DNA of 64,000 nucleotides from a virus. The translations under genes were made by a program, and so were the position numbers. The notes beneath the pieces are model-generated. The model was not told the origin of the DNA. It did not search any database and saw nothing but the letters and a program-made list of their open reading frames with translations. The number at the start of each line of letters is the position of its first letter. Position 1 is the first letter of the stretch. The DNA is taken from IMG/VR virus record IMGVR_UViG_3300045988_147927, positions 1 through 64,000 of that record; one strand, given 5' to 3'. Shown one piece after another: positions 27,811 through 52,249 of this stretch.

Positions 27811-27817
27811 ATATATG

Positions 27818-32524: not shown

Positions 32525-32537
32525 TAGTATCGTTTTT

Positions 32538-33106: not shown

Positions 33107-33125
33107 TATATGTTAATGTAAGGGG

Positions 33126-33154
33126 TTTACATTTTTTGTGATATGTGTTATATT
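33126..33154 (+). promoter_or_regulatory. sigma-A-type promoter candidate
   Basis: TTTACA, 17-nt spacer including TGt, then TATATT. Same architecture as the promoters at 12545, 22598 and 28532. Confidence 0.5.
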
Positions 33155-33160
33155 TTTGGT

Positions 33161-33305: not shown

Positions 33306-33544
33306 TTTTGTCATTTTATAGATTGTTTATATTAAATGTCTTATTATAGTTAGTATAAATAGTTATATTTGATATATGTTCTCATTTTTATTTCAGATAG
33401 TTATTATATATAGTTAATCTTGTTATTAATAATATATAATAAATGTGTAAGTACTCAAAGATTCCAGTTCTACATTATACCGTATTGCTAATTAATATAC
33501 AAAGGATATGTAAGGTAGTGTCATATTTAAGTAGAATGGGGGAA

Positions 33545-34024: not shown

Positions 34025-34040
34025 ATGAGGTTATATGGAG

Positions 34041-34077
34041 AGTAGAGTTAGGGTAAATACTAACTCTACTTTTGTTG
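34041..34077 (+). terminator. rho-independent terminator candidate
   Basis: Stem AGTAGAGTTA / TAACTCTACT followed by TTTGTTG. Confidence 0.55.
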
Positions 34078-34162
34078 TTATATGGGGTTATATTATTGTA
34101 TATAAATAATTTTAGTAGGAATACTTTAGATATTTTATTTAATACGTACAGAAGAGGTTTAT

Positions 34163-35113: not shown

Positions 35114-35369
35114 TTATAATACTGAAGAAGAGAATAAAGTTGCTAGGGAGATTCGTTTTTCCGCATTTAGGGTTCTCATGAAAGAGGCTTTTCAGTTAGC
35201 ATATTTTGGGAGAGTTTCTTATGAGTCTGTTGATAATATGAGTTCTTTAGAGAGAAGAACTATGTATCAATTATTAGTTGAGCAGAAGAAGGAAGAAAAG
35301 AAAGCACAAGATGAGGCTATTCAGAAGGCTAAAGAGAATAAAGGTTCTCGTAGGCATAGAAGGAGGTAG
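35094..35369 (+). CDS. frameshift extension of the tail assembly chaperone (+1 frame)
   Basis: The +1 frame is open across the end of 34163..35113 and continues for 85 codons beyond its stop. It has no start codon or RBS of its own. TTT-TTT-CGT at 35090-35098 is a plausible +1 slip site. The product tail is basic (KKEEKKAQDE...SRRHRRR). Confidence 0.45.
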   Translation, partial: FVPQLSSYNTEEENKVAREIRFSAFRVLMKEAFQLAYFGRVSYESVDNMSSLERRTMYQLLVEQKKEEKKAQDEAIQKAKENKGSRRHRRR

Positions 35370-35398
35370 CCTCTTTCTTTTATATTGGTGGTTTGTAT

Positions 35399-38300
35399 AT
35401 GGATGAAGCAAAGAATAAAGAAAATCTAAATAAACGTATACAAAAGATAGAGCAAAAAGAGGCTAAAAGGGTTGAAAAGCAGATTGCTAAACGTGAGCAA
35501 CGTTTTTCTAAAATGCTAGACAATCAGATGAATATGCTAGAGAAGTTCTATGAGACTTCTAATAAGAAAACAAAGGATAGACTTAGTAGTGGGTTACAGA
35601 ATCAGCAGACAATCTTAGAGGATAATTTGTCTGATATGAAGAGAGAGTTCAACTTATATGCTAAGTATATGGACAACAGTACTCGTAAGTATTATAAGGG
35701 TATGATTTCTGTTGCTGATGAAAATTTACAAACAATGAAAGACACAGTATCTAAGCGTTTTGGTGAAATGACTGATGATATTGAAGATGAGATTGTGGGT
35801 ATGACTGATTCTATCTCTGATAGGGTGAAGAGGTTTACAAAGGATATTAGAGATGCCGCTATAGCTTTGGAATTAACAGATGTTGCTGACAATGTTAAAA
35901 GTCAATTAACAGACATTACAGACTCTTTTATTGACAATTTTAGGGAACGTAGTGCTATGTATAATGGCAACATTACAAAAGGCAGTTATCAAAAAATGAT
36001 AGGTAGTGTTGTGGATTCATCATATGCTATGAGTAGGTCAGAGGCATCTGAGCTTGTAAATTCTGTTATGGATGAGATGTCTATGAAAACGGGTGAGCAG
36101 TTAGAGCCGTATTTGAAAGAGATATCAGCGTTACATGCTTCTATAGATGCTAATATTAATGATATGACTGGTATTATGAGAGCAGATATAAATTCAGGGG
36201 CTAGGGGTGCTATATTTAAGAGTATTTCTAATATAGCGACTGGACTTGGTTCTGATACGAATTTAACTGTTGATAGTAATGCTATGTTATCTTCTATGAA
36301 TGAGCATATTGAGGACTTATTTAATTTGTCAAAAGGTGATTCTAAAAAATTCACAGGTATGACTAAATCATTGGCTACGATGGAAGGTATTCAGCAACAA
36401 GAATATAATAAAGGTGTTGAGGAAGCAGGGGGCAAGATTGTAGAGTGGTCTAAAATGTCTGTTCCTGAACTTCTTAAAGATGATGATTTTGTCCATTTTA
36501 CTGCTTTGAGTGGCATGACTGCACAAGATTTCAGAGATAATATTGATAGTGGTAATGCTGATAAAGTCATGATGGCTATGCAAGATACGTTGAAAGATGT
36601 AAAAAATGACCAGTTCGCTTTGAATCAACGTAGAGAGATGTTAGGGTTTAGTTCGGATGCTGTTGCGATGGCTTTAGCAGATGAGGATAGTTTAGCTGAT
36701 AACTTGAAGAAAGTTACTGATAATATTAATGCTAATGCAGATAAGACTGGTTCAAATGCTGAAAGTATGGCTGGTAAGTCTACAGGATTCGTAGAAAAAA
36801 TTGGTAATTGGTTGTCTGATTCATTCCCAGTTAGGTTGGTATCTGATTTCTTTAGTCAGTTAGATGTTAAAGCCGCCAACTTAGCAAATTACGCTATTAT
36901 AGCTTATACCGCCGCTAATGCGTGGGGTAATGTAAAAGGATATTTCAATAGTTTTAAAGGAATATCTAAAGGTTTTAAAGGGATGGGAACATTCTTTGAA
37001 AAGGGAGGATTAAAGAGGGTATTCAGTTCTAAAGGTGCTTTAAGTGGTGCTATAGAGAGTGGATTATCTTCTGTGTTTGGTAAGACAGGAGGTTTTTTCA
37101 GTAAGGTATTTGATGGCTTTAAAGGTGTGTTTTCGTGGGTAGGTAGAGTATTCTATGCAAATGCACCTGAGGGGATAATAAGGGCTTTATCTAAAGTTGG
37201 TTCTAAATTATGGAAGCCTTTTTCTGATTTCTTTGGTACTATTTTCTCTAAAATAGGTAGTAGTGGTATTGGTAAAATATTCAGTAAGTGGTTTGGTGGG
37301 GGAATATTTAAAGTCTTAGGTAAATTTATACCAATCATTGGTGGATTTTTTGATGTTATATTAGACTTCTTTGATGGTTTGAATAATGTTGATAAATGGT
37401 TTGGTGAGAATCATAGTCTATTTGATACTATTATGAGTGGATTAATAGGTTCTATTTTTGGTACTGGTAGTGGTGTTCAAGGTAAGGATTTCGTGAATGA
37501 TTTTCTCACTGTTTTGGCTGGTGCTTTTAAAGGTGGTGCAGCTGGTTTCGCAGTAGGTGGGCCTATGGGTGCCTTGGTAGGTGCTATTATAGGTGCTATT
37601 GCTAATGCTATTGGTGGTGACAGGATTGCTAATGCATTTAATGACTTCAAAGATAGGATTATAGGTATTTTTGATGGTATATTTGATGCTTTACATGATT
37701 TAGTAGCTGATTCATGGGTTGGTAAGTTGTTTGGTATGGAAAAGACTAATCCAGATGCTACAACTTCTGATAATTTAGGGACTATATTTAAGGGTGGTTT
37801 AGAGTTAAATCCATTTTTAGCACCAGCGATGGCTGTATATAATAAGATGACTACACCTATTGATGATAGTGATATAGGTTCTCATGCCGATGGTTTATCA
37901 AATGTACCTTATGATAATTATTTAGCATATTTACATAAAGGTGAGGCTGTTTTAACTGCTAATCAAGCTGGTGCCGTTAGGTCTGATGGTGGTATTGATG
38001 TTGGTAATAGTGGTTCTTTGATTAATGCTTTAGGGCTAAATGGTGAAATAGGTCAAGGACGTTCTGTATTTGAGAAAGTGTTAAGAGGTGTTTTTGGTAT
38101 CACTGGTGAGGATACGTATGGTGTAGGTGGTCTTTTTGGTACTATACTTAAAAACTTATTTAATATTGGTAGTGATGGTATAGGTGGTCTTTTTGGTGAT
38201 GGTTCTTTATTAGACAAATTAAAGTCATTGATTGGTGGTAGTGATTCTTCTTCATCAGGTGGTGGAAAGGGTGCCCCTATGTCTACTGGTAAAGGTGATT

Positions 38301-39070
38301 CTAAGAAGGTGTGGGATTTCTTAGCTGGTAAGGGGTTTTCTGCTAATGCTATTGCTGGCATTATGGGGAATTTACAGGAAGAGAGTGGATTCCGTAGTGG
38401 TGCTATTGAAGGTGATATGGGGAAAACAAATGAGGATTTACTTAAACAGATTACTGCTAGTAAAGATGCATTTTTGGCTCATCAAGGTGGTTTTGGTTTA
38501 GCACAATGGACAAGTGATAACAGAAAATCTGATTTATGGGATTATGCACAGTCTAAGGGTAAGAGTGTTGCTGATTATGATACTCAGTTAGAGTTCTTAT
38601 TTAAGGAATTAAAAGAAAATTATTCTGATACTTATGATGCTTTAATGAATGGTAGCATATCTTTAGAGGAAGCTTGTACAGTATTCGGTGATAAGTATGA
38701 GGGTTTTGGCGCAAATTCAGCCGCTAATAGGTTAGCTAATGCTAAACAAGTATATCAAGATAGTACAGCTACAGCAGGTAGTGGAAAACCTCAATACGCT
38801 CAGGGTACACCTTGGGTACCTGATACACAGGTTGCTTTAATTCACGAGGGAGAGATGGTAGTACCAGCTGATGTAAACCCACTTAATACAACTACAAGTA
38901 CAACAACTGTTTCAGATGAAGATGGTAGTGAAAATGTAGTAGACGCTATAAAGTGGCAAGTTAGTAGGTTGGAGGCTAAGTTTGATATATTAATTAATAT
39001 ATTATCAGGTGGCTCTAGTACTAGAGGTGTTAGTGGTAGTACTTCAGTCGATAATTTGTTGAGAGTGTAA
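35399..39070 (+). CDS. tail tape measure protein with C-terminal lysozyme-like domain
   Basis: 1224 aa. Coiled-coil N-terminal half and Gly-rich hydrophobic middle (GxxxG runs). AIAGIMGNLQEESGFRSGAIEGD...GFGLAQWT is the tail-associated lysozyme pattern. Confidence 0.85.
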   Translation: MDEAKNKENLNKRIQKIEQKEAKRVEKQIAKREQRFSKMLDNQMNMLEKFYETSNKKTKDRLSSGLQNQQTILEDNLSDMKREFNLYAKYMDNSTRKYYKGMISVADENLQTMKDTVSKRFGEMTDDIEDEIVGMTDSISDRVKRFTKDIRDAAIALELTDVADNVKSQLTDITDSFIDNFRERSAMYNGNITKGSYQKMIGSVVDSSYAMSRSEASELVNSVMDEMSMKTGEQLEPYLKEISALHASIDANINDMTGIMRADINSGARGAIFKSISNIATGLGSDTNLTVDSNAMLSSMNEHIEDLFNLSKGDSKKFTGMTKSLATMEGIQQQEYNKGVEEAGGKIVEWSKMSVPELLKDDDFVHFTALSGMTAQDFRDNIDSGNADKVMMAMQDTLKDVKNDQFALNQRREMLGFSSDAVAMALADEDSLADNLKKVTDNINANADKTGSNAESMAGKSTGFVEKIGNWLSDSFPVRLVSDFFSQLDVKAANLANYAIIAYTAANAWGNVKGYFNSFKGISKGFKGMGTFFEKGGLKRVFSSKGALSGAIESGLSSVFGKTGGFFSKVFDGFKGVFSWVGRVFYANAPEGIIRALSKVGSKLWKPFSDFFGTIFSKIGSSGIGKIFSKWFGGGIFKVLGKFIPIIGGFFDVILDFFDGLNNVDKWFGENHSLFDTIMSGLIGSIFGTGSGVQGKDFVNDFLTVLAGAFKGGAAGFAVGGPMGALVGAIIGAIANAIGGDRIANAFNDFKDRIIGIFDGIFDALHDLVADSWVGKLFGMEKTNPDATTSDNLGTIFKGGLELNPFLAPAMAVYNKMTTPIDDSDIGSHADGLSNVPYDNYLAYLHKGEAVLTANQAGAVRSDGGIDVGNSGSLINALGLNGEIGQGRSVFEKVLRGVFGITGEDTYGVGGLFGTILKNLFNIGSDGIGGLFGDGSLLDKLKSLIGGSDSSSSGGGKGAPMSTGKGDSKKVWDFLAGKGFSANAIAGIMGNLQEESGFRSGAIEGDMGKTNEDLLKQITASKDAFLAHQGGFGLAQWTSDNRKSDLWDYAQSKGKSVADYDTQLEFLFKELKENYSDTYDALMNGSISLEEACTVFGDKYEGFGANSAANRLANAKQVYQDSTATAGSGKPQYAQGTPWVPDTQVALIHEGEMVVPADVNPLNTTTSTTTVSDEDGSENVVDAIKWQVSRLEAKFDILINILSGGSSTRGVSGSTSVDNLLRV

Positions 39071-39090
39071 TGTTTGGGGGTGTTTGAGTT

Positions 39091-39687
39091 TTGGCAAATG
39101 ACTTTAGTTCTGACAAGTATTCTATGTCAGTTGGTAAGAGTGGGGTTACTACGATGCAGTGGAATCCCACTCAAATCGTACCTTGTTACATTGTAAATCT
39201 TGTTACAGGTATGAAGATTAATTTTGCGACTCTACCTACAGATGTTTCTGAGGATTACTCTGCTAGTTTCGGTTCTCAGCAACCTATGGGTAGGTCATCT
39301 CCATATTTTAACTATGAAAATAGTGAGGCTAGGACAGTTTCTTATAGCGTTACATTGCATAAAGATATTGTACCTGATATGGAGAATGTTGTATTAGAGT
39401 GTAAGAAGTTAGTCTATCCTAAGTATACTGGTAGTTTAGTTACACCGCCTTATTGTTATGTGAGGTTTGGTGCTATGATAAATATGACTGCTATAGTCAA
39501 TTCAGTTAGTGTTGAGTGGGGTGGTGCAGCTGGAACTATATTAGGAGATACTTTGGATAGTGAGTCTTTAGGGGGAAATAGTTCACCTACATATTCTGAT
39601 GTACAATTAAGTTTTAGTTTTACTGAATTAAGATTACGTTCCTTAATGCAAGCTGATAATGTATTTGACGAAGGGCCAGTAAGGTAG
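39091..39687 (+). CDS. baseplate tube-initiator-like protein
   Basis: Position after the tape measure. ATLPTDVSEDYSASF...GRSSPYFNYENSEARTVSYSVTLH...LVYPKY...PPYCYVRFG resembles tube-fold baseplate proteins. TTG start after GGGGGTG. Confidence 0.45.
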   Translation: MANDFSSDKYSMSVGKSGVTTMQWNPTQIVPCYIVNLVTGMKINFATLPTDVSEDYSASFGSQQPMGRSSPYFNYENSEARTVSYSVTLHKDIVPDMENVVLECKKLVYPKYTGSLVTPPYCYVRFGAMINMTAIVNSVSVEWGGAAGTILGDTLDSESLGGNSSPTYSDVQLSFSFTELRLRSLMQADNVFDEGPVR

Positions 39688-39696
39688 GTGATTTTT

Positions 39697-40053
39697 ATGC
39701 ATAAACCGTCATTAATAAAAACAGAAATAACACAGTCTTTTACAAGTAGACAGGATAAAATATCTCGATATTCTAAATTAAAGAGGTTAGTTAATCTCAA
39801 TGGTGATACATATATAGAAACACCTAACAAGTTTACAATAGAGGAGAGTAATAGGGATATTTACTACTCTGTTGAGAAAGGTTTTGAGGATAGATTAGAT
39901 TTAATATCTAATAAATTTTATGGTACACCGTTAATGTACTGGGCAATAGCTGTTATGAATCATATAGATAACCCTTTAGATGTTCCTGTAGGTGTTGTGT
40001 TGAGGATACCAGCCATTGAGTCCATTTACGATACAGGGGTGATTCAAATTTGA
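39697..40053 (+). CDS. LysM-like tail protein (P2 gpX / XkdP-like)
   Basis: FEDRLDLISNKFYGTPLMYWAIAVMNHIDNPLDVPVGVVLRIP is a LysM-type pattern, in the conserved position upstream of the hub gene. Confidence 0.6.
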   Translation: MHKPSLIKTEITQSFTSRQDKISRYSKLKRLVNLNGDTYIETPNKFTIEESNRDIYYSVEKGFEDRLDLISNKFYGTPLMYWAIAVMNHIDNPLDVPVGVVLRIPAIESIYDTGVIQI

Positions 40054-40541
40054 GTGATTACAAAGATAGTCTTATTACTAGAAATTTAAGTCCTCATCAG
40101 CCTCTATATGCTTTTATAGATTTAAGTATTGATGGGCATAATATATCATATTTCGGTAATAAAGAATTTAATGATTCAGTAATTAGTCTTAATGTGGAAA
40201 GAAAAGGTACTTCTAATCAAGATTTAGCTGGTTCTACTTTTGATATAGAGTTGTATGATGATACTGCTTTAAGAATAGAAGAGCTGTTAGCGAATACTAT
40301 ACCAGCAGGTTCAAATTTTAAGACCGCTAAAGAGTTGAAAGATACTGGTAATAAGGTTACTGATGGTAATATCGAGTGGAAACAACAAGAGGAAGCTAAG
40401 AAAAAAGAGCAGGCAGAGAAGGATAATACATATACAGAGGAAGATGAAAAGAAAGACCCTAATCATAAAGCAGGCACTAAAAAACAGTCTGGTGGTGCAA
40501 CTCAGTCTGGAAATGTTAGGTGTAAATATGGATGGTGTGAT
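40050..40541 (+). CDS. baseplate hub / late-control-D-like multidomain protein, exon 1 (164 codons)
   Basis: TTG start after AGGGGTG. Ends ...NVRCKYGWCD, then an in-frame TAA that is the first triplet of element B. Confidence 0.65.
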
Positions 40542-41028
40542 TAAATGTGCTACATATATTCATAGTTATAGTTATGAATAGGTATGTATATAGCACGTAT
40601 AGTCCATACATCTAGTGATAGGTGTGTGTCGAGTGGTAACACTCGGAGATTCATTGAATTGCTGGAAAGTCCTAAAGCTCAATTAACTACAACGTGATAT
40701 CTAATAATATGATATGAGCGTGAATGGTAGCGAAAGCAGAAAAAATAATTGAGATGGTATAAGGTGAAATAAAAGCTATATCACATATGATATAGTCCTA
40801 AGTACTGAGATAATGGACAATCAGCAGCCAAGCACGTAAGTGAAGGTTCAACGACTATCCTGTGAAGGAGTACGGCTCTAGTGAGTGGGTGAGAATCCCT
40901 TAAATGGAAGTGGTGAAGGTCTTTCAGATAGAAAGATTAAGATATAGTCTGTGCCTACATGAAAGTGTAGGATGCACGTAGTGGTGCTGGCTAGAAGTAG
41001 CGATTCTAGTTGAACGAGCATCCTCTCA
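40542..41028 (+). ncRNA. group I intron catalytic core (copy B)
   Basis: AAGATATAGTC at 40939-40949. GGTTCAACGACTAT. Hairpins CGAGTG-GTAA-CACTCG and CAC-GTAA-GTG. CCTACA-TGAAAG-TGTAGG (40954-40971) covaries with copy A. Confidence 0.7.
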
Positions 41029-41131
41029 TAGAGAGTTTTATGGTTTTATATATATTGAAATTAATCTCCTTTTGTAGTACATTAATAATATAATGTTTAT
41101 TGTTAATGATACGAAAGGGGGTGTAAATCTC

Positions 41132-42224
41132 GTGAATAAGAGTTTTAAAGTTAGGATTTATCCAAATCAAGAACAGAAAGTCTTGATTGATAAGACATTT
41201 GGATGTGCAAGATTCATATACAATTTTATGTTGAATCTGAAACAAAAATTGTATGAGTATCATAATATTTCTTTAGGTTTTTATGACCTATCTAAGATTC
41301 TTACAGAAATTAAAAGACATAAATTGTGGCTTAAAGAAGTTGATAAGTGGGCATTACAAAATGCTTTAAAAGATTTAGATAGTGCTTATAAAAGATTTTA
41401 TAATGGTGGTGGATTTCCTAAGTTTAAATCTAAAAAGCGAGATAAAAACTCCTATCGTACAAATCATAGAATACAGTTAATTGTAGATAATAAGAAAGTT
41501 AAAATTTCCTAAAGTTGGTAGTATTAAGTTCAGAGATAAAAGTAGATTTGATGGAATTACTAAAATTTATAATATCACTATTTCTAGGACATCTAGTGGA
41601 AAATATTATGCTAGTATATCTGCTGAGGTTAATATTGAACATTTTGAGAAAACCAATCAGAGTGTGGGTATTGACTTGGGATTAAAAGATTTCTGTATCT
41701 TAAATGATGGAACTAAGTTTGAAAATCCTAAATTTTTAGTTAGAAATGAAAAGCGACTTAGATTACTTCAAAAATCGTTAAGTCGCAAGATTTGTGGTTC
41801 TAAAAACTATGAAAAAGCTAAGATAAAGTTAGCTAAATTTCATGAGTATATTGTTAATTTTCGTAAAGATTATTTACATAAAATATCGTTATATTTGGTT
41901 AGAAATTATGATATTTTATGTGCAGAAACATTGAGAGTTAAGAATATGGTAAAGAATCATAAGTTAGCTAAATCAATTAGTGATGTTAGTTGGTATGAAT
42001 TTTGTAGGCAGTTAGAGTATAAGTGTCTGTGGTATGGAAAGAGATTTGTACAGATTAGTACATATTTTGCATCATCACAAATATGTTCTAATTGTGGGTA
42101 TAAGAATTCTGATGTTAAAAATCTCAATGTAAGAGAATGGACTTGCTCTAAATGTGGCAGTCATAATGAAAGAGATATCAATGCATCGATTAATATTTTG
42201 CATGAAGGATTAAGAATTATATAA
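41132..42224 (+). pseudogene. tnpB: tnpB with a single frameshift near nt 41490-41510
   Basis: GTG start after GAAAGGGGGTG. The N-terminal frame stops at 41510-41512 (...DNKKVKIS*). The continuation [45 protein letters not shown]...GIDLGLKDF is in the +1 frame. The downstream RuvC and zinc-ribbon motifs are intact. Confidence 0.75.
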
Positions 42225-42228
42225 TTTC

Positions 42229-42359
42229 AGTATATAGAACCATAGGACATATGGGGATAGCCTACTGTCATAGTGTAAGACGTATAGTGAATCTGTTTCA
42301 TTATGTGTAATTATTGGGTAGGAACTTCGTCACTTTAATGAGTGGTGAGAGGATGTCAG
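42229..42359 (+). ncRNA. 3'-terminal RNA module of element B
   Basis: GGACATATGGGGATAGCCTACTGTC...TTGGGTAGGAACTTCGTCACTTTAATGAGTGGTGAGAGGATGTCAG is homologous to 27818..27948. Confidence 0.6.
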
Positions 42360-45300
42360 AGAAAAGGTCAAGTAATAGAAGATATTTCTCTTATAGGGAA
42401 GGCTTTAAAATATACCTTAGCTTTTGAGGGGCCTGCTTTAACCCTAACATTAAATTGTGTGGCTGAGGCTGATGTTAAGACTACGCAAAAGTTGAATATG
42501 GAGTTTAGCGCTGAAAAGTTTGGGGGTAAGCCATCAGATATTGTTAGAGCATTATGTGAGAAAGCTCATATCAAGATTGGTCGGATTGTAGAAACAAAAC
42601 CAATCTTAGGTGATGATGGTAAACCTAAAGAGTTTAAGATGGGTTCTCGTACTATGAGGGAGTTTATTGCAGATGAGTTGTTAGAAAAAGCTACACCTAC
42701 TGATTCTGATAAACCTGGTTATAAATTCTTTTTGCAAGTTGTTGATGGGGAAGAGAAAGCATTTTTTGTTCCTAATGATATGTATGGTGATATGACTGTT
42801 ATCACATATAAGAAGATGGAAGAGACTACAACAACTACTACAACCACAACAACTTCTAATGATAAGCCTAGTGGGTTAAGTCCGTATCAAAAAGTTATGG
42901 GTGTATCTACGCCAATTCTAGGGCATACAAGAGATACTAATGTTAGTGTAGTAGGTGATGGTAAGGTTGTCTTTGTAGGTGATTTTAGAGTTAGAGATTT
43001 ACAAAATTCAGTACCTGATAATAAAGATTTAATGTATATCTATGATGATAAAGCTAATTATAGGTGGTTAAAGGATAACTTTGAATTAATAGAGTCTAAG
43101 TTACATATGGGGTATCGTGTATATTTTATGTTAGGGCATAATGATATAGACAATATTCTTAATTATGTTGAGTTTTATAATAAAGTAGCTAAAGAATTAG
43201 ATACAAAGGGTGTTCAAGTCTTTGTTGTATCTGTTTTACCTGTTTTCATGGGTAAAACAGATTTACATAATAGTAATATACAACGATTTAATAATGCTAT
43301 AAATCAGAATAGAGTTAGGGAATTGCATTATGTAAATATTTATGGTGATATTTTAAAGACTTTAAGAAGTAATAATACTAAACAAGATGGTATTTCTTAT
43401 AATAATAGATTAATGCAAGATGTATATAATAGAATAGTCTATTATCGTGAGGATTTAACTACATCTAAGAATATAGGTCTTAGTAGAAGTAATATTATAA
43501 ATGGGTTAGAATTTGTTACACATACATTACCGGATATGTTAAATACAAATTCATATCAAGGTAATGTTTCAGATGATGAGTATTATGGTAGTTTTATTGG
43601 TGTAGAGGAAGATACATCAAACCTAGTAGCATTAGCTTTAGCTGATGCCTCAAATGAGGATATAGCAAATTTACTATCTGAGATGACATTGTGGAAGATG
43701 TACTTAGAGGATGAGAATAATAAGGTATCTAAGGTAGGTATACTTGGTAGTGATAAGACTGAGAGTATCGATAAGTCTAAGTTACAGTTTGATAAAAATA
43801 AATTAGTTAATGCTTTCATAGATGTACTAGATAAGAAGGGATATACTAAGGAAGTTAAAGAGTATGTATCACTTGTAAATACATTTACTGATACTATTAA
43901 AGATAAGAAATTAGATACAACTGATAAATATGTAAATGCTTTGACTATGTTATCTAGCAAACTTGGTAAAGATAGTTCTATTTCAAAAACTATTACTAAT
44001 GTTGTTAAGGTTATTACTGAGAATAAAGATAAGGTTCTTAATGTTAAGGACAAAAAGATTTCTTATGATGATTTAGCTACAGATATAGTTTCTAAATTAC
44101 TACCTAATCAGAGTGCTAATATAAGTAAAATCACTGATAAGGTTTCATCTATTATGAAGTTAGATAGAGATAAGATAAAAAAAGGTGATTATTCTGAATT
44201 ACAAGGAATGTTAGCTAAAGAGCTAGGGATTAATGATAAAGATATTAATAAATATGTAGAGATAGGTAAGACTATATCTGAGATATATAAGAATAGGGAA
44301 TACTTTGACATAAAAGATTTAAGTCTAGTTTCTACTGATTTATTAAAGAGTGTTGTAGGGGAAGAAAAAGTAAAAAAAGTTGAGAAGTATATAGATACTG
44401 CTCAGAATTTATACAAGGCTTTTAGTGGTGCTAAAGATATAAAGGATATCAATAGTGCTGTAACTTCTTTGTCTGATGTGTTAGGTAAGAATACAAAAAT
44501 TAATAGGTATATAGATACTGCTAGGTCTTTTATGGATATCATTAATAAAGGTAGTGTTGGTACAGGCATCATTAATACTAATAATGGAATTAGTAAAATC
44601 ATAAATGATAGGTTGCCTAATATAGCACAGGCAGGTACTTTAGGTGGAGTTGTGGCATCTACTGTAGGTATATCACCAACTTCTACTAAAGAGGTGTTAA
44701 AGGCTTATGTTCCTAAAGGTGTTGATAGTGGTGTTACTAAGGTAAATGGTAGTCCTACTGATGGTACTAAGACAGGTCAATCATCTAATGTTACAAAAGA
44801 TGGGATATCAGATGAGGAAATGAAGAAAGGTGTTAGGTCTGTTACTTTTGGTGGTAAAAAGACTAAAATGGAGATTTGTGGTGAGTATGAGATTTACACA
44901 GGAAGACCTGATGGTAGGGTAATTAGTTTCTCACCAGAGTTTGAGAGTGATAATATAGCTACAAATAAAGTACCTACAAGTGCATTGACAATAGATGGTG
45001 TTAGGAATGAGATGCTAGAGTGTACTATTGAGGGTGTTGGTGGTGCTTTAGCTAGTGATGCTTATATGGAGAGGTCTAATCAAGAGGGGAGTAGTAATGT
45101 TGGTGTTGTGTTAGGTATGAGTGGTTCTTCTTTCAAGAATTTAGAATCATCAGCCGCAAGTATGTGGAGTCGATATTTTAGTTCTGTATATGGTGCTAGT
45201 TTAGAGATATTAGGCGATACTAGAGTTAAGTTTCAAGGACATATCAAGATAGCAGTTTATACTAAGTACGGTTTTTTACACCATACCAGTGGTATTTACA

Positions 45301-45854
45301 ATATACAAGGTATAACAGATTCTATTAATGGTGGTATGTTTACTACTACACTTGATTTACAGAAAAATAGTGATGAAGTTAAGAAAAAGAAAAAAGGAAA
45401 GGAAAAGAATAAAGTGGATGAAACAAAAGGACATGATGTAGGTGATGGTAAATACTGGGTTAAACAAAGTGGCAAGGTATCTTTAGAGGGTGCTATAAGT
45501 GGGATACCTAGTGCTTTAGATATGTTAGGTAAGTGGTTCTATGATAGGTCAGGGCATAAGTTGGTTGTTACCTCTGTTACTGATGGAGACCATGCATATG
45601 GTGAACACTGTCATGCTAATGGTTGGAAGATGGATGTCAATGATTGGTATGGGCCAGAGGGGTTACAAGGTGGATTAATTATTAATAGTGATGATACACC
45701 TGGCTCGATTTGTCTTGACTTTATTGAATATGGTAGGTCTATAGGTCTAGGTATGAATTTTGAGGGAGACCATATAGATATTCAAATGGATGGCACTGAG
45801 TGGAATGAAAATAATCCTGGTGGTGCTAAAGATAATGGTGGTTTTAGAGGATAG
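42360..45854 (+). CDS. baseplate hub multidomain protein, exon 2 (1164 codons) with SGNH-like and LAS/M15-like peptidase domains
   Basis: Begins RKGQVIEDISLIGKALKYTLAFEGPALTLTLNC (hub-type beta region). It has a poly-Thr linker (T9), then VVFVGDFRVRDL...YFMLGHNDI...VVSVLPV (SGNH-like), a long Lys-rich repeat region, and C-terminal SGHKLVVTSVTDGDHAYGEHCHANGWKMDV (zinc D,D-/L,D-peptidase-like). Confidence 0.65.
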   Translation, partial: RKGQVIEDISLIGKALKYTLAFEGPALTLTLNCVAEADVKTTQKLNMEFSAEKFGGKPSDIVRALCEKAHIKIGRIVETKPILGDDGKPKEFKMGSRTMREFIADELLEKATPTDSDKPGYKFFLQVVDGEEKAFFVPNDMYGDMTVITYKKMEETTTTTTTTTTSNDKPSGLSPYQKVMGVSTPILGHTRDTNVSVVGDGKVVFVGDFRVRDLQNSVPDNKDLMYIYDDKANYRWLKDNFELIESKLHMGYRVYFMLGHNDIDNILNYVEFYNKVAKELDTKGVQVFVVSVLPVFMGKTDLHNSNIQRFNNAINQNRVRELHYVNIYGDILKTLRSNNTKQDGISYNNRLMQDVYNRIVYYREDLTTSKNIGLSRSNIINGLEFVTHTLPDMLNTNSYQGNVSDDEYYGSFIGVEEDTSNLVALALADASNEDIANLLSEMTLWKMYLEDENNKVSKVGILGSDKTESIDKSKLQFDKNKLVNAFIDVLDKKGYTKEVKEYVSLVNTFTDTIKDKKLDTTDKYVNALTMLSSKLGKDSSISKTITNVVKVITENKDKVLNVKDKKISYDDLATDIVSKLLPNQSANISKITDKVSSIMKLDRDKIKKGDYSELQGMLAKELGINDKDINKYVEIGKTISEIYKNREYFDIKDLSLVSTDLLKSVVGEEKVKKVEKYIDTAQNLYKAFSGAKDIKDINSAVTSLSDVLGKNTKINRYIDTARSFMDIINKGSVGTGIINTNNGISKIINDRLPNIAQAGTLGGVVASTVGISPTSTKEVLKAYVPKGVDSGVTKVNGSPTDGTKTGQSSNVTKDGISDEEMKKGVRSVTFGGKKTKMEICGEYEIYTGRPDGRVISFSPEFESDNIATNKVPTSALTIDGVRNEMLECTIEGVGGALASDAYMERSNQEGSSNVGVVLGMSGSSFKNLESSAASMWSRYFSSVYGASLEILGDTRVKFQGHIKIAVYTKYGFLHHTSGIYNIQGITDSINGGMFTTTLDLQKNSDEVKKKKKGKEKNKVDETKGHDVGDGKYWVKQSGKVSLEGAISGIPSALDMLGKWFYDRSGHKLVVTSVTDGDHAYGEHCHANGWKMDVNDWYGPEGLQGGLIINSDDTPGSICLDFIEYGRSIGLGMNFEGDHIDIQMDGTEWNENNPGGAKDNGGFRG

Positions 45855-45861
45855 AAGTTAA

Positions 45862-46680
45862 ATGTCTATACGCAATGATGATTTTAGTGGTAGTCTAAGG
45901 ACACCTACTGAACTTAGTGGTATATATCGTGCTAGGGTTGAGAATAATGTAGACCCTTTACATATAGGTAGGGTTCAAATACGTGTGCCAATGGTTCATA
46001 AAACAGTTTCTAGTGGTGGTACCTCTAATGATATGTTGCCTTGGGCCAGCTACTGTTCGTCTATAGGTGCTGGGTACAATTATGGTTCTTTTATTGTTCC
46101 TGAGATAGGTGAGTATGTGTGGGTTATGTTTGAAGATAATGACCCAGAGAAGCCTGTATACCTAGGTTCTGTTTTTGGTACTGACTCTACTCTTGAAAAG
46201 AGGTATGGTAGTGATGATACTACTGGTGTTTGGAGTGGTGTAGTTGGTGCTAATGAGGTTCCCATTGAATCACAAAGAGAGAGTCCATCTCATAAGATGA
46301 TTTATAAATCCAGACACGGTACTATGATGTACTTCGATACCGATGATAAGACAAATTCCTTTGGTGTTGAGGATGCCAATAATCAGAAGTTCAAGATATC
46401 ATCTGTAGAGGGGAAAACATTCACATTAATGGAAGGTGAGAATAATGTGGTTGTTAAGATACATGATGGTAGGGTTGACATCGGTTATGAGGGTGGTAGA
46501 GGTATTCAAGTTATACCAAGTGATGGAAATATAGTATTAAAGGCTAGTGGTGCTACTATAACATTATCAGATTCCATTACTATGAAAGCAGATAGTGTTA
46601 GTGTTAAATCAAGTTCATTTAGTGTTAAGTCTGATGATATTAAGATGACAGCTGGGAATGTTAAGATTATAGAGACATAG
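45862..46680 (+). CDS. baseplate central spike (gpV / gp5 OB-fold, VgrG-like)
   Basis: GIYRARVENNVDPLHIGRVQIRVPMVH...LPWASY...GEYVWVMFEDNDPEKPVYLGS. Confidence 0.8.
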   Translation: MSIRNDDFSGSLRTPTELSGIYRARVENNVDPLHIGRVQIRVPMVHKTVSSGGTSNDMLPWASYCSSIGAGYNYGSFIVPEIGEYVWVMFEDNDPEKPVYLGSVFGTDSTLEKRYGSDDTTGVWSGVVGANEVPIESQRESPSHKMIYKSRHGTMMYFDTDDKTNSFGVEDANNQKFKISSVEGKTFTLMEGENNVVVKIHDGRVDIGYEGGRGIQVIPSDGNIVLKASGATITLSDSITMKADSVSVKSSSFSVKSDDIKMTAGNVKIIET

Positions 46681-46687
46681 AGTTAAA

Positions 46688-46714
46688 TAGAGGTACGATT
46701 CGTACCTCTATTTT
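46688..46714 (+). terminator. rho-independent terminator
   Basis: Stem TAGAGGTACG / CGTACCTCTA followed by TTTT. Confidence 0.65.
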
Positions 46715-46853
46715 AGTGTAAAAAATTCATGTTAATTTTAGTATGGTATTCGATTATAAATATATGTGAGTGTTTAGAGTTGATTACTTTGTGTTTGGTT
46801 GATAAGTGTATTCTGTAGAAGTAGTTTTTATGATGTTTAGTGTATCTTCTTAC

Positions 46854-48235
46854 TGAAAGGTTGTTTTTATAGTATGTATATATCATAATCATCTTGTAAA
46901 AATAGAAAGTGGGGTGATAATAATGTACTTAACAATGAAGCAACAAGTAAAGCATTTAACTAAAGAAGAATATAATATTTTAAGAGAGTTGTGCAGAATA
47001 TCAAAGAATTTAACTAATCAAGCAATTTATAATATTAGACAATATTATTTTCAAGAAAAACAATATTTAAGGTATGAGTCTAACTATCATGAGTTAAAAA
47101 ATTCTGAGAATTATAAGTTGTTAAATTCTAATATGGCTCAACAGACCATTAAAGGTGTTGACTCAATGTTTAAGTCATTTTTTGCTTTAATTAGATTAGC
47201 AAAACAAGGTAAATATAGTTTTAAGCATATAAGATTGCCTAATTATTTACCTAAAGATGGGTATTCATGTTTAATTATTGCTCAGTTTAGTATTAAAGAT
47301 GGTAATGTTTTAATGATTCCATATTCTAATGCTTTTAATAAAAAATACAAAACAAGAGTTAGTGTTAGAGTTCCTAAAGTATTAGAAGATAAAAAGATAA
47401 AAGAAATTAGAATTATACCTAAATTTAATGCTAGGTTCTTCGAGATTCAATATACTTATGAAATTCAAGGAGAAAATATACAATTAAATACTAACAATGC
47501 ACTGGCTATTGATTTAGGGGTTAATAATTTGTGTACTTGCGTAACAAACATAGGCAAATCTTTTATTATTGATGGAAGAAAGTTAAAGTCTATCAATCAA
47601 TTCTTTAATAAGAGAAATGCGAGATTACAGTCCATTAAAGATAAGCAAAATATCAAGAAACAAACAAAGCAACAATATTTAATCTCTCAAAAGAGAAAGA
47701 ATAGAGTTGAGGATTATATCAATAAAGCATGTAGGTATATTATTAATTATTGTTTGTCTAATGATATTGGTATTTTAGTTATTGGTTATAATCAGTCATT
47801 TCAAAGTAAAGCTAATTTAGGGAATATAAACAATCAAACTTTTACTCAATTACCTTTTGGTAGGGTTAGAGATAAGTTAGATTGTTTATGCAAACGATAT
47901 AATATGAATTATATTCTACAAGAAGAATCTTATACGTCTAAAGCTAGTTTCTTTGATAATGATATTCTACCTATTTATAATGCGGATAATCCACAAACCT
48001 ATGAGTTTAGTGGTAAACGTATCAAAAGAGGTTTATACCAAACTAAAAATAATTATCGTTTTAATGCAGATTGTAATGGAGCATTAAATATTCTTCGTAA
48101 AAGTAAAGCTGTAGACTTAACAGTCTTATGCAGTAGGGGCGAACTGGACACGCCTAAAAGAATAAGGGTTTATTAGGATATCAAACTTCTTAATAAAATG
48201 ACTTTATGTTGTTTTTAGAATCATAGGATGTTCAG
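46854..48235 (+). mobile_element. TnpB-only IS200/IS605-type element C (second lineage)
   Basis: Sequence shared with 52250..53652 starts at TGAAAGGTTGTTTTTATAGTA, directly after TTAC (46850-46853), and ends ...GAATCATAGGATGTTCAG (48235). The flanks are unrelated between copies. Confidence 0.65.
46923..48176 (+). CDS. tnpB: TnpB-family protein, zinc-finger-less lineage
   Basis: AIDLGVNNL (RuvC-I Asp) ... LVIGYNQSFQSKANLG ... QEESYTSKASF ... FNADCNGALNILRK (RuvC-III Asp). 418 aa. Confidence 0.8.
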   Translation: MYLTMKQQVKHLTKEEYNILRELCRISKNLTNQAIYNIRQYYFQEKQYLRYESNYHELKNSENYKLLNSNMAQQTIKGVDSMFKSFFALIRLAKQGKYSFKHIRLPNYLPKDGYSCLIIAQFSIKDGNVLMIPYSNAFNKKYKTRVSVRVPKVLEDKKIKEIRIIPKFNARFFEIQYTYEIQGENIQLNTNNALAIDLGVNNLCTCVTNIGKSFIIDGRKLKSINQFFNKRNARLQSIKDKQNIKKQTKQQYLISQKRKNRVEDYINKACRYIINYCLSNDIGILVIGYNQSFQSKANLGNINNQTFTQLPFGRVRDKLDCLCKRYNMNYILQEESYTSKASFFDNDILPIYNADNPQTYEFSGKRIKRGLYQTKNNYRFNADCNGALNILRKSKAVDLTVLCSRGELDTPKRIRVY

Positions 48236-48263
48236 AAATATATGTTAGAAGGGGTGATGATTT

Positions 48264-48743
48264 TTGGCTTTTTATTACAATAATGAATTTAAGGATACAA
48301 TAGCTGGTAGAGGATTATCACTTAATAATACTTTTACAGTAAATTATAGAGATGGTAAAGGGGTAACAAATGTAATTAGTGGTGAGGAGAAGATAAACGA
48401 GAGTATATTCTCAATTCTATCGACTAGGGTAGGTGAAAGGTTTTTCGTGCCAGAGTTTGGTAGTCGATTACATTTAGTACTTTTTGAGCAAAATAAATAT
48501 ATTGCTCAGGATTTGATATCTATTTATATACGAGAAGCATTGTCTAACTGGGAAAAGAGGATTGTTGTTGAGGATGTGGCTTTAGGAGATGGGTGGGAGG
48601 ATTCTAATGTTGTTCCAATTCATATTACCTATAGTCTTGCTAACAGTAATGTCATGGGTTCATATGTATACCCTTTTAATAGGAGTATAGATGGTGTTGA
48701 TATGTATGATTTAGGGAGTTCTAACAATATAACAGCTTATTAG
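48264..48743 (+). CDS. baseplate wedge protein gp25 / GPW-like
   Basis: INESIFSILSTRVGERFFVPEFGSRLHLVLFEQN is the gp25-like signature. TTG start after GAAGGGGTG. Confidence 0.8.
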   Translation: MAFYYNNEFKDTIAGRGLSLNNTFTVNYRDGKGVTNVISGEEKINESIFSILSTRVGERFFVPEFGSRLHLVLFEQNKYIAQDLISIYIREALSNWEKRIVVEDVALGDGWEDSNVVPIHITYSLANSNVMGSYVYPFNRSIDGVDMYDLGSSNNITAY

Positions 48744-48760
48744 AAAGGGGGTTTTACTTT

Positions 48761-50206
48761 TTGGCTAGTAGCAATAATTCAATGTCTTATACTGGAAGAG
48801 ATATTGTCAGTATAAGGAAAGAATTGATAAATACAATACCTACGTTGACAGATAAGTGGACTGATTTTAATGAGTCTGATTTAGGTATGGTGTTGGTTGA
48901 GTTAATGGCTGGTGTACAAGATATGCAAAACTTCTATCTTGATACACAGGCTTTTGAAACATATAGTGATACTGCGGTTCAAGATAAGAATGTTAGAGCA
49001 TTACTACGTTCTATGAATTATAGGATACCGTTGGCTAAATCAGCTGAGTGTATAGTAAGGATTACATTTGTTAATAATGACATACGAGATATAACCATTC
49101 CTAAATATACGTCGTTTACGAGTAGTGTTAATACAAGTGTTATTAATTATGTTGCTAAAGATACAGTAACAAAGAGTGGTAATTTTGATTATATTGATAT
49201 ACCAGTTATGGAGGGTATTGCTAGGTCTATAACATGGAGTAAGGATGATTTTATATCTAATGTCAATGTAGATGGTGATATATCTAGAAGAATTTATTTA
49301 GGGTATAAGAATGTTTCTGATGGTTCTGTTGAAATTGTTCAGAGTGGTAATGTTTGGGAAGAGTGTGATGATGCTCTATTAAAATATGAAGGTGGTCGGT
49401 GGTTTTCTGTTCATGCAGATGCTGAAGGTCAGGTATATGTTTTAATGTCTGTCAATTTTTTACAACTGATTGAAGATGGCGAGACTATTACATTTAATTT
49501 TGTAACAACAAGTGGTATGCAGGGTGTTGTTGATATGGATGTAATAAATACCATAAATATGAGTATTCAAGGTGTTCAGAGGATATATAATACAACTAAG
49601 TCATATGATTCAGCTGATGTTCCTAGTAGTTCTGATTTACAAGATATGAAAGTACTTGCTAGAAGAAATGCTGTTACAATGGGTAGACTTATTACTTTAG
49701 AAGATTTTGAGACAGCTTTATATAAGAATCCTTATATTTATAGTGCAGTTGTTAAGGATTGGAAATATAGTGATTATGTAGATGAGCCTTATATTGTTAA
49801 AATATGGGCTGTAAATAATCTTGGTGAGTCTTTAGGCGAGTTGACTAGAGAAAAGTTAAAAAAGGATTTAATGTCTAAGGCTATTGCTGATGTGACTGTT
49901 CAAGTGTTGGAAGTAGAGAATGTTAATTTTGATATAGATGTTGATGTTGTGTTATCTCTTGACAATGCAACAGCTAGAGAGAGATTAAGGACAGAGATTA
50001 AAAACTATTTATCCACTAAATATCGAACTGAGGTAATGGGGTTTGGTGAGACAATATCATATTCATTACTAACTTCTAGGGTTCAAGCATATTCACCTTA
50101 TGTAAAAGATGTCAGGGTTAAGACACCTAATAAAGATATAAAAGTTGGTAATATACAATTCCCTAAACTTGGAAATGTTGTTGTTAATTTAGTAGATGAA
50201 TTATAG
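48761..50206 (+). CDS. baseplate J-like protein (gp6 / gpJ family)
   Basis: TDFNESDLGMVLVELMAGVQDMQNFYLDTQAFETY and its position after the gp25-like gene. Confidence 0.75.
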   Translation: MASSNNSMSYTGRDIVSIRKELINTIPTLTDKWTDFNESDLGMVLVELMAGVQDMQNFYLDTQAFETYSDTAVQDKNVRALLRSMNYRIPLAKSAECIVRITFVNNDIRDITIPKYTSFTSSVNTSVINYVAKDTVTKSGNFDYIDIPVMEGIARSITWSKDDFISNVNVDGDISRRIYLGYKNVSDGSVEIVQSGNVWEECDDALLKYEGGRWFSVHADAEGQVYVLMSVNFLQLIEDGETITFNFVTTSGMQGVVDMDVINTINMSIQGVQRIYNTTKSYDSADVPSSSDLQDMKVLARRNAVTMGRLITLEDFETALYKNPYIYSAVVKDWKYSDYVDEPYIVKIWAVNNLGESLGELTREKLKKDLMSKAIADVTVQVLEVENVNFDIDVDVVLSLDNATARERLRTEIKNYLSTKYRTEVMGFGETISYSLLTSRVQAYSPYVKDVRVKTPNKDIKVGNIQFPKLGNVVVNLVDEL

Positions 50207-50214
50207 GTGTTGTA

Positions 50215-51522
50215 ATGAAATTAGTTGATAAATTAAGAAATAATAAGTATATGACACTTATTCCGGATAAATACAAAGAGAATGAAAATTTTCTAGTATT
50301 TTTCCATCTACTAATAACTCAATTCAATATTAATGAAGAGAACATAAGGAATTTTACTAATTTAATTAATAATGATAAAGTACCTATGAAGTTTTTACAG
50401 AATCTAGGTGCATTTGTCAATTACTCCTATCAGCATTTAGCTAAGAATGATTTTAATCGTGAGTTGTCAATGCGTATGCATAATATATGGGAACAGAGGG
50501 GTAGTAAGAAGTCTATAGTTGATGCCGCCACGTATGGTGATAACATAGGGTGGGTAGGTGGGGATTTATGGATACCTGGTTATTATAAGCCATCAGCAAT
50601 AGCTGGGTTTGAGTTGCCAAGAGATAGGATTTTTAGACATAGTGTTTCTAAATTTTCTAGTACTCATGTCTTTGAAGATGGTAAGACATATATGCCTGGT
50701 GTTATATTACTCTCTGTACCTAATTTGACTAGGTTAGTAAAAAAACGTATATACGAGGTTACTCCTGCTGGTAGAAAGTATATATTTCAGATTGAATCTT
50801 CGTTCTTCCCTAATGATGGGATAGATAAATTAGATATAGGTTCTTATAATGAGTTGTCTTTTTATAAGAGAATGAGGGTATATCCTAAAGACATTAATGA
50901 AGAGAATCCACCATATGACAGGGATACAGATATAGATTTCACATATGAGATTGATATGATGGCTAATATGGATGAGTTTTTTAACATACTTATTCATAGT
51001 GAAAATAGAGGTAAGAAGTATCATAGTGGACATTTAACAAATATAACTAACTATGGGTATGAGATGAATATGTCAGCATCTATGTTACCAGTAAGTTTTT
51101 TATCTCATAAATTCCCTGTAAATGGTAATGATTCTCTACCTGACAATGCATATAAAAAATCTAAGACTGGTGAATATTTAGATACTTATAACAATAAAGG
51201 GATAGATTCTATTATGAGGGATATATCTCTTATCAATGATAATAATGTAGATTTAGATGTTCATAGAGAAGTTAGGTTGACTGCTATACGGAGTGAGAGT
51301 TCTTCTAGTAGGTCAGGGAATGGTAAGATGAGTGGTATAACATCTAGTATTGTTGATGCTTTTGTAGAATCTGAGCCTATATTACCTAGCGATTGTTTGT
51401 ATTCTGTTGATGATGTTGCTGATTTGAATGAAAATTGTTTTAGAGATGAATTTTATTCAAGTGGTGTACAGATAAATGGTGATAGAGAGTATCCGTGGAG
51501 ATTGTCTTTAACTCATATATAG
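50215..51522 (+). CDS. baseplate wedge / tail protein I-like
   Basis: Synteny after the J-like gene. N-terminal LIPDKYKENENFLVFFHLL...LQNLGAFVN pattern. Confidence 0.5.
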   Translation: MKLVDKLRNNKYMTLIPDKYKENENFLVFFHLLITQFNINEENIRNFTNLINNDKVPMKFLQNLGAFVNYSYQHLAKNDFNRELSMRMHNIWEQRGSKKSIVDAATYGDNIGWVGGDLWIPGYYKPSAIAGFELPRDRIFRHSVSKFSSTHVFEDGKTYMPGVILLSVPNLTRLVKKRIYEVTPAGRKYIFQIESSFFPNDGIDKLDIGSYNELSFYKRMRVYPKDINEENPPYDRDTDIDFTYEIDMMANMDEFFNILIHSENRGKKYHSGHLTNITNYGYEMNMSASMLPVSFLSHKFPVNGNDSLPDNAYKKSKTGEYLDTYNNKGIDSIMRDISLINDNNVDLDVHREVRLTAIRSESSSSRSGNGKMSGITSSIVDAFVESEPILPSDCLYSVDDVADLNENCFRDEFYSSGVQINGDREYPWRLSLTHI

Positions 51523-51581
51523 TTAGTAATATATAATATTGTAATATTTAATAGAGTGATAGTTGTGGAGGTATAAATACT

Positions 51582-52124: not shown

Positions 52125-52249
52125 CCGTGAGATGTGGATAGTAAAGGTTCTAGGAAACTATCACATAGTGGTAGTTCTTATACTATCCAACTAAGACATC
52201 TAATTGATTTTAGAAATATGGTTCTAAAAATGTCCTATAAGATTTTTAC

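Follow-up and report, generated by a model that had tools for sequence, protein, structure and literature searches.

In the viral record IMGVR_UViG_3300045988_147927, of which positions 1..64,000 were analysed (the window, whose coordinates are used throughout), the gene for a predicted baseplate hub protein is interrupted by an element of 1818 nucleotides (nt), hereafter element B. This element, at 40542..42359, is very probably a group A IStron, that is, a predicted self-splicing group I intron, possibly of the IA2 type, combined with a tnpA-less insertion sequence (IS) of the IS200/IS605 type, placed in phase 0 within a gp27-like hub domain. An IStron-like element with a ribozyme core, tnpB and a 3′ module had been proposed to interrupt the hub gene in a sequence-only reading of the window; its anatomy of element B is correct, as borne out by Rfam, Pfam and empty-site evidence. 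A second family copy in the window is called element A. The element and its exons are as follows, the open reading frame (ORF) list and two related loci, L001 and L002, being the sources for the exons.

40050..40541, + strand: hub exon 1, 164 codons, TTG start (ORF list; junction in L001 and L002)
40542..42359, + strand: IStron B, 1818 nt, group A, IS200/IS605-type (empty site; collinear with element A and at least 80 family copies)
42360..45854, + strand: hub exon 2, 1164 codons (ORF list)

Insertion site and interrupted hub gene

In the ORF list, the exon-1 ORF (40050..40544) ends in NVRCKYGWCD followed by TAA, and the ORF at 42342..45854 reads RKGQVIEDISLIGKALKYTLAFEG from 42360 on; these ends and coordinates, like the other sequence statements of the sequence-only reading, all hold. 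Joining 40541 to 42360, with 1818 nt taken out, gives a single open frame of 1328 codons, as had been claimed, and YGWCDRKGQVIEDISLIGK is the predicted junction-spanning peptide of the joined hub. The same join occurs naturally in L001 and L002, which share 98% identity with the window across the 600 nt that surround the junction and correspond exactly to exon 1 plus exon 2: TGGTGTGAT is directly joined to AGAAAAGGTCAAG without a gap, with AGAAAAGG at the exon-2 side, and the protein across the joined site reads YGWCD, then RKGQV. Compared with these empty sites, no flanking bases are duplicated or deleted at the site of element B. Moreover, the element begins with T where exon 2 begins with A, and it ends in G where exon 1 ends in T, so that the boundaries are exactly 40542..42359. 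The last five nt of exon 1, GTGAT, constitute the transposon-adjacent motif and the 5′ splice-site context, the first triplet of the element, TAA, is an in-frame stop for exon 1, and the 3′ terminus is TCAG (...GTCAG), with GGATGTCAG as the last bases at 42359.

A scan of IMG/VR with the exon-2 protein returned 33 loci, in 28 of which the match starts at exon-2 residue 1 and the upstream frame continues for 169-178 codons that encode the exon-1 protein. Intron-less at the junction are L001, L002 and 26 further homologues (62-63% amino acid (aa) identity). Uninterrupted homologues align across the junction, an outcome in favour of the sequence-only reading, which had named a failure to align as its refutation; this holds for nine close ones (77-79% identity) without any gap, and among 42 remote homologues from an exhaustive search several matched stretches cover the 164/165 boundary, with Y160 and G161 invariant. 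IMG/VR and the exhaustive search were the sources of these relatives; among GenBank phages, no hub relatives turned up in a megablast with the region or in a tblastn with the spliced hub N-terminus, nor did a word-indexed protein search return any.

Structural modelling supports the host gene as a gp27-like baseplate hub in which both exons would contribute to one domain. The spliced hub protein has no Pfam or PHROG match, neither hub piece had a match above threshold even when Pfam was scanned at a relaxed E of up to 10, a profile of the hub N-terminus returned only spurious matches among PDB sequences, and the exon-2 protein had no significant match there. Along the locus, a tape measure gene that includes a lysozyme domain is followed by those for a tube-like protein, a LysM-like protein, the hub and a Phage_base_V spike, then by an IS, gp25 and further wedge proteins. 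A single-sequence AlphaFold model of the hub, with a predicted local distance difference test (pLDDT) score of 35, was of no use; with the remote homologues included, the first 319 spliced residues were modelled at pLDDT 76, and the junction falls in a beta-hairpin of this model (strands 155-163 and 169-187). The best Foldseek match was T4 gp27 (E 2e-5, probability 1.00), accompanied by hubs of other contractile systems, at low template-modelling (TM) scores of 0.22-0.29. Remote hub homologues bear peptidoglycan hydrolase domains, plus a weak YQBQ-like match. At 42828-42830 in exon 2, a run of ten Thr codons shows a length difference of one codon between the window and L001, L002 and L145, the last being a further locus described below.

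Ribozyme, closing helix and putative guide-RNA end

The RNA features of element B are listed here by position.

40542-41030, + strand: ribozyme part, at the 5′ end of the element
40539..40604, + strand: P1 hairpin; exon GAU (40539-41) with GUC (40602-04), intron 40542-52 with 40591-601, apical stem 40559-66/40571-78
40602..40971, + strand: group I core (Rfam RF00028 match)
40606-14/40619-27, + strand: core P2 (family fold)
40650-54/40913-17, + strand: core P3, UUCAU/GUGAA (by eye from alignment columns, unscored)
40660-65/40821-26, + strand: core P4 (family fold)
40670-72/40815-17, + strand: core P5 (family fold)
40828-29/40845-46 and 40833-35/40840-42, + strand: core P6 (family fold)
40853-57/40945-49, + strand: core P7 (family fold)
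40858-61/40866-69, + strand: core P7.1 (family fold)
40919-25/40931-37, + strand: core P8, GUCUUUC/GAAAGAU (by eye from alignment columns, unscored)
40954-60/40965-71, + strand: core P9 (family fold)
40974..41012, + strand: peripheral 3′ hairpins, P9.1-like 40974-77/40984-87 and P9.2-like 40988-95/41005-12 (RNAalifold, compensatory changes)
41019..41028, + strand: closing helix, 5′ strand, CATCCTCTCA, pairing with 42346-55 (-20.6 kcal/mol)
42225..42359, + strand: right end and putative omega RNA scaffold; hairpin 42240-44/42250-54, long stem 42261-65/42318-22, terminal hairpin CTTC 42325-28 / GAGG 42349-52
42346..42355, + strand: closing helix, 3′ strand, TGAGAGGATG, four bases before the splice site

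In a scan of 551 nt, the Rfam model Intron_gpI (RF00028) matches 40602-40971 over its full length (1-253) with 75.1 bits (threshold 50; E 2.7e-19), and the classical core elements P, Q, R and S can be read by eye as AATTGCTGG (40657), AATCAGCAGCC (40819), GTTCAACGACTA (40846) and AAGATATAGTC (40939), respectively. An RNAalifold fold of 20 ribozymes of the family has 88 consensus pairs, 57 with compensatory changes, and element B retains 87 of them, in agreement with the earlier statement that its ribozyme elements are preserved. An explicit count over 85 pairs found 97.2% of cells paired and double changes at 56 of the 85; none of 500 shuffles was as good, and slid controls reached 34-37%. RNAalifold was unable to draw P3 and P8 because P3 crosses P7. 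In other copies, P3 takes the forms GAAAC/GUUUC, GACAC/GUGUC, CUAAU/GUUAG and CUACU/GGUAG, and the UUCAU/GUGAA of element B covaries with the GAAAC/GUUUC of element A. A first assignment of P3, GATTC 40646-50 with GAATC 40891-95, was discarded, as its 3′ partner lies in a B-specific insertion and both the Rfam and the family alignments give UUCAU/GUGAA; the RNAalifold pairs 40546-48/41018-20 were treated as spurious and kept out of the pair count. Subclass IA2 is marked by extra P7.1 and P7.2 hairpins and an extended P9 domain (P9.0-P9.2); the hairpins at the P7.1 (40858-69) and P7.2 (40873-40906) positions of element B, and two more after P9, may point to this subclass.

At the 5′ splice site, P1 consists of the wobble pair U40541-G40602 and the pairs A40540-U40603 and G40539-C40604. 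Across 21 copies, the covariation between exon position -3 and guide position 3 is perfect (11 T-A, 9 G-C and 1 G-T) and separates two groups of the family, one TTTAT-type (A-like) and one TTGAT-type (B-like), and the extension helices of P1 vary in sequence with their pairing kept. A terminal G stands at the 3′ splice site, and a CAG end is common to 25/25 copies. A long-range closing helix of 10-12 base pairs, which brackets and loops out tnpB, is likewise present in 25/25 copies although its sequence varies (CAUUCUCUU/AAGAGAAUG and AACCUCU/GGGAGGUU).

The last 135 nt hold three conserved helices with 15 consensus pairs, 11 of which show compensatory changes among the 25 copies. The 3′ module, which the sequence-only reading had rightly described as preserved in element B, is by position and form a putative TnpB guide-RNA scaffold. 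The would-be guide is the first ~16-20 nt of exon 2, AGAAAAGGTCAAGTAATAGA, and the guide 20-mer is identical in L001 and L002, where it lies directly 3′ of GTGAT, and in L145. Since GAGG at 42349-52 is needed both by the terminal hairpin and by the closing helix, the two folds are mutually exclusive. An antagonism between splicing and guide RNA has been reported for IStrons (bioRxiv 10.1101/2023.11.20.567912), and its described determinant, "stability at the base of the 3' terminal stem-loop" (PMC13521648), matches the fold conflict in element B.

These features suggest a mechanism in which the hub mRNA would be transcribed through the element, and the 5′ ~490 nt would fold as a ribozyme whose P1, observed in sequence and covariation, is formed by exon GAU and guide GUC. 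The helix 41019-28/42346-55 would loop out tnpB and may set the ...UCAG end at the active site, after which two transesterifications would join 40541 to 42360 for a hub of 1328 aa, a predicted product equal to the intron-less allele. In unspliced RNA, translation would stop at the first triplet of the intron, TAA. As an alternative fate of the same transcript, the last ~135 nt could fold as a TnpB guide RNA, and the two fates would compete, as published for IStrons. Loaded with this guide RNA, TnpB would cleave those hub alleles that lack the intron (GTGAT + AGAAAAGGTCAAG) and could so promote copying of the element into them; as the tnpB of element B is frameshifted, or affected by a sequencing error, another copy would have to supply any nuclease.

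Broken tnpB, age and mobility

The protein-coding part of the element is made up of the following features.

41132-42224, + strand: tnpB span (translation and Pfam)
41132..41512, + strand: tnpB 5′ part, GTG start aligned with the start of the tnpB of element A, premature TAA from the frameshift
41505..41507, + strand: T run with an extra T (+1 nt), which breaks tnpB
41508..42224, + strand: tnpB 3′ part, +1 frame, open to the stop at 42222-24

As the sequence-only reading had noticed, tnpB is broken by one frameshift, located here to an extra T at 41505-41507, and the intact TnpB frame expected of an obligate mobile element-guided activity (OMEGA) system is interrupted in element B (+1 nt, 41505-07). 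With one T removed, the ORF encodes a TnpB of 363 aa, collinear with and 60% identical to the TnpB of element A, which itself matches ISDra2 TnpB structures with E 2.5e-90. The repaired ORF matches HTH_OrfB_IS605, OrfB_IS605 and Cas12f1-like_TNB of Pfam, with the helix-turn-helix, RuvC and zinc-ribbon domains all present, and GIDLG, AETL and RDINA in the 3′ part occupy the positions expected for the three RuvC catalytic residues. In bacterial genomes, the TnpB relatives are at most 56% identical, bar one fragmentary match.

A second lineage with the same insertion, L145 (ERZ772920 NODE_9587; 3.1 kb, coverage 2.6), was found by a pattern search of metagenome contigs. In it, element B occupies the same hub site and its 3′ junction is identical; L145 can be aligned with 40673-43784 of the window (93.7%), and its tnpB is intact, with 371 open codons. 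The two orthologous copies are mosaic, and their identity differs by part:

ribozyme: 84.9%
tnpB 5′ half: 99.1%
tnpB 3′ half: 86.0%
right end: 99.3%

As a separate observation at 2.6x coverage, L145 has an 8-nt deletion at the equivalent of window 40911-40918, which reaches into the 3′ strand of P3 and may reflect either faulty assembly or a genuine defect.

The tnpB frameshift is a very recent change or a sequencing error. Were it an extra base introduced by sequencing or assembly in an A4T3 run, TnpB would be intact and element B a fully equipped homing IStron; this is somewhat unlikely, yet of all the alternatives it fares best. It agrees with the extra T lying within AAAATTTCC, where the 12 nearest relatives and L145 have AAAA-TTCC or an equivalent; all 12 relatives have open tnpB frames (363-367 codons), L145 is nearly identical over that half of the gene, and both halves in element B are otherwise open, with no other stop or indel. 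However, the run is short, three T's not being a classic error-prone homopolymer on most platforms, and loss of IS genes is common in IStrons (PMC4227781).

The sequence-only reading had instead proposed an old, fixed insertion, whose nuclease has decayed while selection keeps splicing alone for the expression of the hub. The ribozyme is indeed fully intact and tnpB broken, and eight base pairs are changed on both sides between L145 and element B with pairing kept, which shows that RNA structure is constrained at this hub site; moreover, IStrons that go on splicing while their IS part decays are already on record (PMC4227781). Nevertheless, this explanation is improbable: element B is missing from L001, L002 and 26 other hub alleles, there is only one lesion, a unique base in an otherwise open gene, and the orthologous tnpB is intact. 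A lesion that is very recent or an error is uninformative on long-term relaxed selection, and the claim of selection for splicing instead of nuclease function is not sustained. Furthermore, exon 2 of L145 is 98.3-98.7% identical to the intron-less L001 and L002 and 95.9% identical to the window; being nearer to the intron-less alleles, it uncouples the presence of the element from the hub allele tree, a pattern that would fit recent homing or precise loss. Element B is thus a segregating, recently mobile polymorphism, not old and fixed. In the clade with 62-63% identity, AAT replaces GAT at the insertion site, so that the adjacent motif and the G-C pair of P1 are both lost. A co-conversion tract was also considered, as the 105 nt upstream of the insertion hold 8 of the 12 mismatches to L001; it was rejected as not significant because the divergence of the locus is mosaic, with 20-28 mismatches in other 250-nt bins.

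It is very improbable that the element is never spliced and that the hub is made as two polypeptides, an N-terminal one of 164 aa and a C-terminal one begun inside the element, or that the phage is defective. A GTG at 42342 does open the downstream frame, but no ribosome-binding site is evident by eye upstream of it, the junction would split a beta-hairpin within a single modelled gp27-like domain, the ribozyme retains 87/88 consensus pairs and exceeds the Rfam threshold, and the same insertion persists with compensatory changes in a second lineage. Programmed +1 ribosomal frameshifting that bypasses the tnpB break and regulates TnpB levels can practically be dismissed, because the arrangement, a possible shift site in the A/T run right before the stop (...AAA ATT TCC TAA), occurs in no relative and is unique to this copy rather than conserved, and by reading it matches no known +1 slippery motif.

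Several points weigh against interpreting element B as a splicing and mobile IStron. Splicing, guide-RNA production and homing are all deduced from sequence. The default Rfam pipeline reported no intron, whether the window was scanned at the gathering threshold or 4 kb of it by E value; both introns of this AT-rich window surface only when ~550 nt are searched, and the misses are filter artefacts, the filters probably being defeated by large P5 and P7.2 insertions. Just three exon bases pair in P1, a search for a P10 pairing with the 3′ exon found none, and GTGAT is one base off the canonical TTGAT. There is also no Y1_Tnp match, and so no tnpA, among the 19 mid-size window ORFs tested, the gap of just ~100 nt between ribozyme and tnpB leaving no space for tnpA inside the element; with tnpB broken as well, this copy could move only with the help of factors provided in trans. 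The form without ORF A (TnpA) is common in group A IStrons (PMC4227781), and its absence therefore does not exclude membership of that group.

On the spread of such elements, a tentative proposal, possible though short of an even chance, is that tnpA-less IS605 IStrons move as RNA-guided homing introns between co-infecting large phages. TnpB loaded with the right-end RNA, encoded either by that copy or by any of several sister copies in a genome, would cut an essential structural gene in its intron-less form (at the hub, GTGAT + AGAAAAGGTCAAG), and repair from the intron-bearing genome would then install the element. If true, homing would explain why presence and absence are uncoupled from the hub tree, why copies are mosaic and why the hub region is struck at several sites.

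Relatives, known systems and significance

A TnpB-based scan of IMG/VR gave 198 related stretches, of which 80 were kept. The family has at least 80 loci, many of them several per contig on contigs of ~200 kb. In the window, element A runs 26168..27948 after TTTAT, in a host gene that starts at ATG 26117 and whose exon 1 has 17 codons; its removal gives an in-frame join to 27949 onward (window 26117-28512), and its Rfam group I match covers 26222-26557 at 68.6 bits. The sequence-only reading had put the start of element A near 26100, where the actual start is 26168. It had also described ribozyme, tnpB and 3′ module of elements A and B as collinear, which the alignment confirms (81% mean column identity), and had regarded the two as old, independent insertions rather than a recent duplication. 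Element B is indeed not a recent duplicate of element A, because their motifs (TTTAT versus GTGAT), the matching guide base and TnpB (60%) differ, but it is not old.

Sister copies of element B follow TTGAT, CTGAT, ATGAT or GTGAT, and the A-like group follows TTTAT or NNTAT. In 12/12 clearly intragenic copies, removal of the element restores long ORFs. Splice phase 0 was found in 9 of these 12, an excess that is not significant because phase 1 is impossible at TTGAT sites, where TGA would be in frame. Other copies also hit the hub region, and the hub itself is a repeated target: L031 (8-630) holds a B-like IStron after GCGAT at a second hub site, equivalent to window 45218/45219, and L004 (3694-5393) and L083, from the clade with 62-63% identity, hold an A-like IStron seven codons before the stop of the LysM-like gene upstream of the hub. 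Element A is found at the same site in a related contig, at 95-98% identity.

A lone right-end module, 98% identical to that of element A and ending in GAGGATGTCAG, occupies 32877-33009, in an intergenic position after a small ORF and with no adjacent ribozyme or tnpB; L047 has a copy in the same place with the same 20-nt flank, AAAGTGTATATCTTCTCTGA. This module may be what is left of a decayed element, or else a guide RNA that stands alone and serves the TnpB of element A. In L055-L057, L061-L064, L070, L072, L074 and L075, TnpB is 67-77% identical in aa sequence, the right-end module matches at least over its start, and blastn found no ribozyme upstream; the same TnpB and guide-RNA lineage seems to occur both as a plain IS and as an IStron. 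No match to the exact ribozyme pattern was found in bacterial genomes.

Other mobile and repeated sequences were observed in the window. A 1470-nt insertion at 46766-48235, between the spike and gp25 genes, encodes a TnpB of 420 aa (46914-48176) from another sub-family and has no ribozyme; it is absent from L001 and L002, a further presence/absence polymorphism of the baseplate module. A paralogue of this IS, 85-88% identical, lies 5.4 kb downstream at ~52243-53600 (tnpB 52312-53577). A 99-nt direct repeat (12518-12616 and 22571-22669; 87% identity), ending in AAAGGAGAAATAAAA and with TTTACA ... TATAAT-like motifs, looks like a repeated phage promoter or leader.

CdISt1 of Clostridioides difficile, reportedly described by Braun in 2000, is a group A IStron. 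Like element B, the group A IStrons (CdISt1, FnISt1, LbISt1 and others; Tourasse 2014, PMC4227781) have a group I ribozyme at the 5′ end, of the IA2 type and possibly so in element B, then ORF B (tnpB) of IS200/IS605 with ORF A missing, a TTGAT-like pentanucleotide upstream, a TCAG end, no target duplication and precise restoration of the host ORF. They measure ~1.76-1.86 kb, which the 1818 nt of element B match, they insert 3′ of a TTGAT, an ATTAT or a TTTAT motif, and the IS part is often degenerate with the ribozyme kept (PMC4227781); the size of ~1.8 kb, ORF B only, the TTGAT-like site and the TCAG end are the marks of "group A" (PMC4227781; PMC13565253). Element B differs from them in its host, a large phage (related contigs reach ~200 kb) rather than a bacterial chromosome, in its target, a baseplate hub, in its upstream motif GTGAT, in a TnpB at most 56% identical to any bacterial copy found, and in the great abundance of its family in this phage group (at least 80 loci, several per contig).

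In the group B IStrons of the IS607 type (CboIStron of C. botulinum; Zedaveinyte et al., bioRxiv 10.1101/2023.11.20.567912; PMC13521648), the same dual transcript serves as intron or as TnpB guide RNA, and the base of the 3′ terminal guide-RNA hairpin likewise competes with the splicing structure; such elements are also reported from C. botulinum phages (PMC4227781). They differ by a serine recombinase TnpA, a TGGG site, a CGG end and a G at the 5′ splice site, whereas in element B the splice-site base is U, the element ends in TCAG and TnpB resembles that of ISDra2. ISDra2/IS605 TnpB (PDB 8bf8, 8ex9 and 8h1j) shares the TTGAT-type motif and a guide taken from the flank directly 3′ of the right end, but ISDra2 has tnpA and no ribozyme, whereas element B has no tnpA and carries a group I intron at its left end.

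Group I introns with homing endonucleases are found in phages, as in T4 td, nrdB and sunY, Twort and SPO1. They resemble element B as introns in essential phage genes, variably present among close relatives and expected to spread in mixed infections. Element B differs by an RNA-guided TnpB and a transposon right end in place of a protein-only homing endonuclease; its target choice would need just a short motif and a guide.

Element B belongs to a known kind of element: the first IStrons date back to 2000, and how one element can act as intron and as guide RNA was worked out in 2023-2026. Element B adds a clean, well-bounded case of an IStron of the IS605 type within a structural gene essential to a phage, for which empty and filled alleles occur naturally, and a large radiation of such elements within one clade of large metagenomic phages. 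For annotation, as default Rfam scans miss both introns of the window, genes of the hub type can be mis-called as two ORFs. The idea of TnpB-guided homing was raised in a 2026 review (PMC13565253), and a limited literature check found no demonstration of it for IStrons. The alleles described here offer population evidence suited to the question of whether tnpA-less IStrons home under TnpB guidance in mixed phage infections; if they do, such homing would provide both for the spread of the element and for marker exclusion against rival phages.

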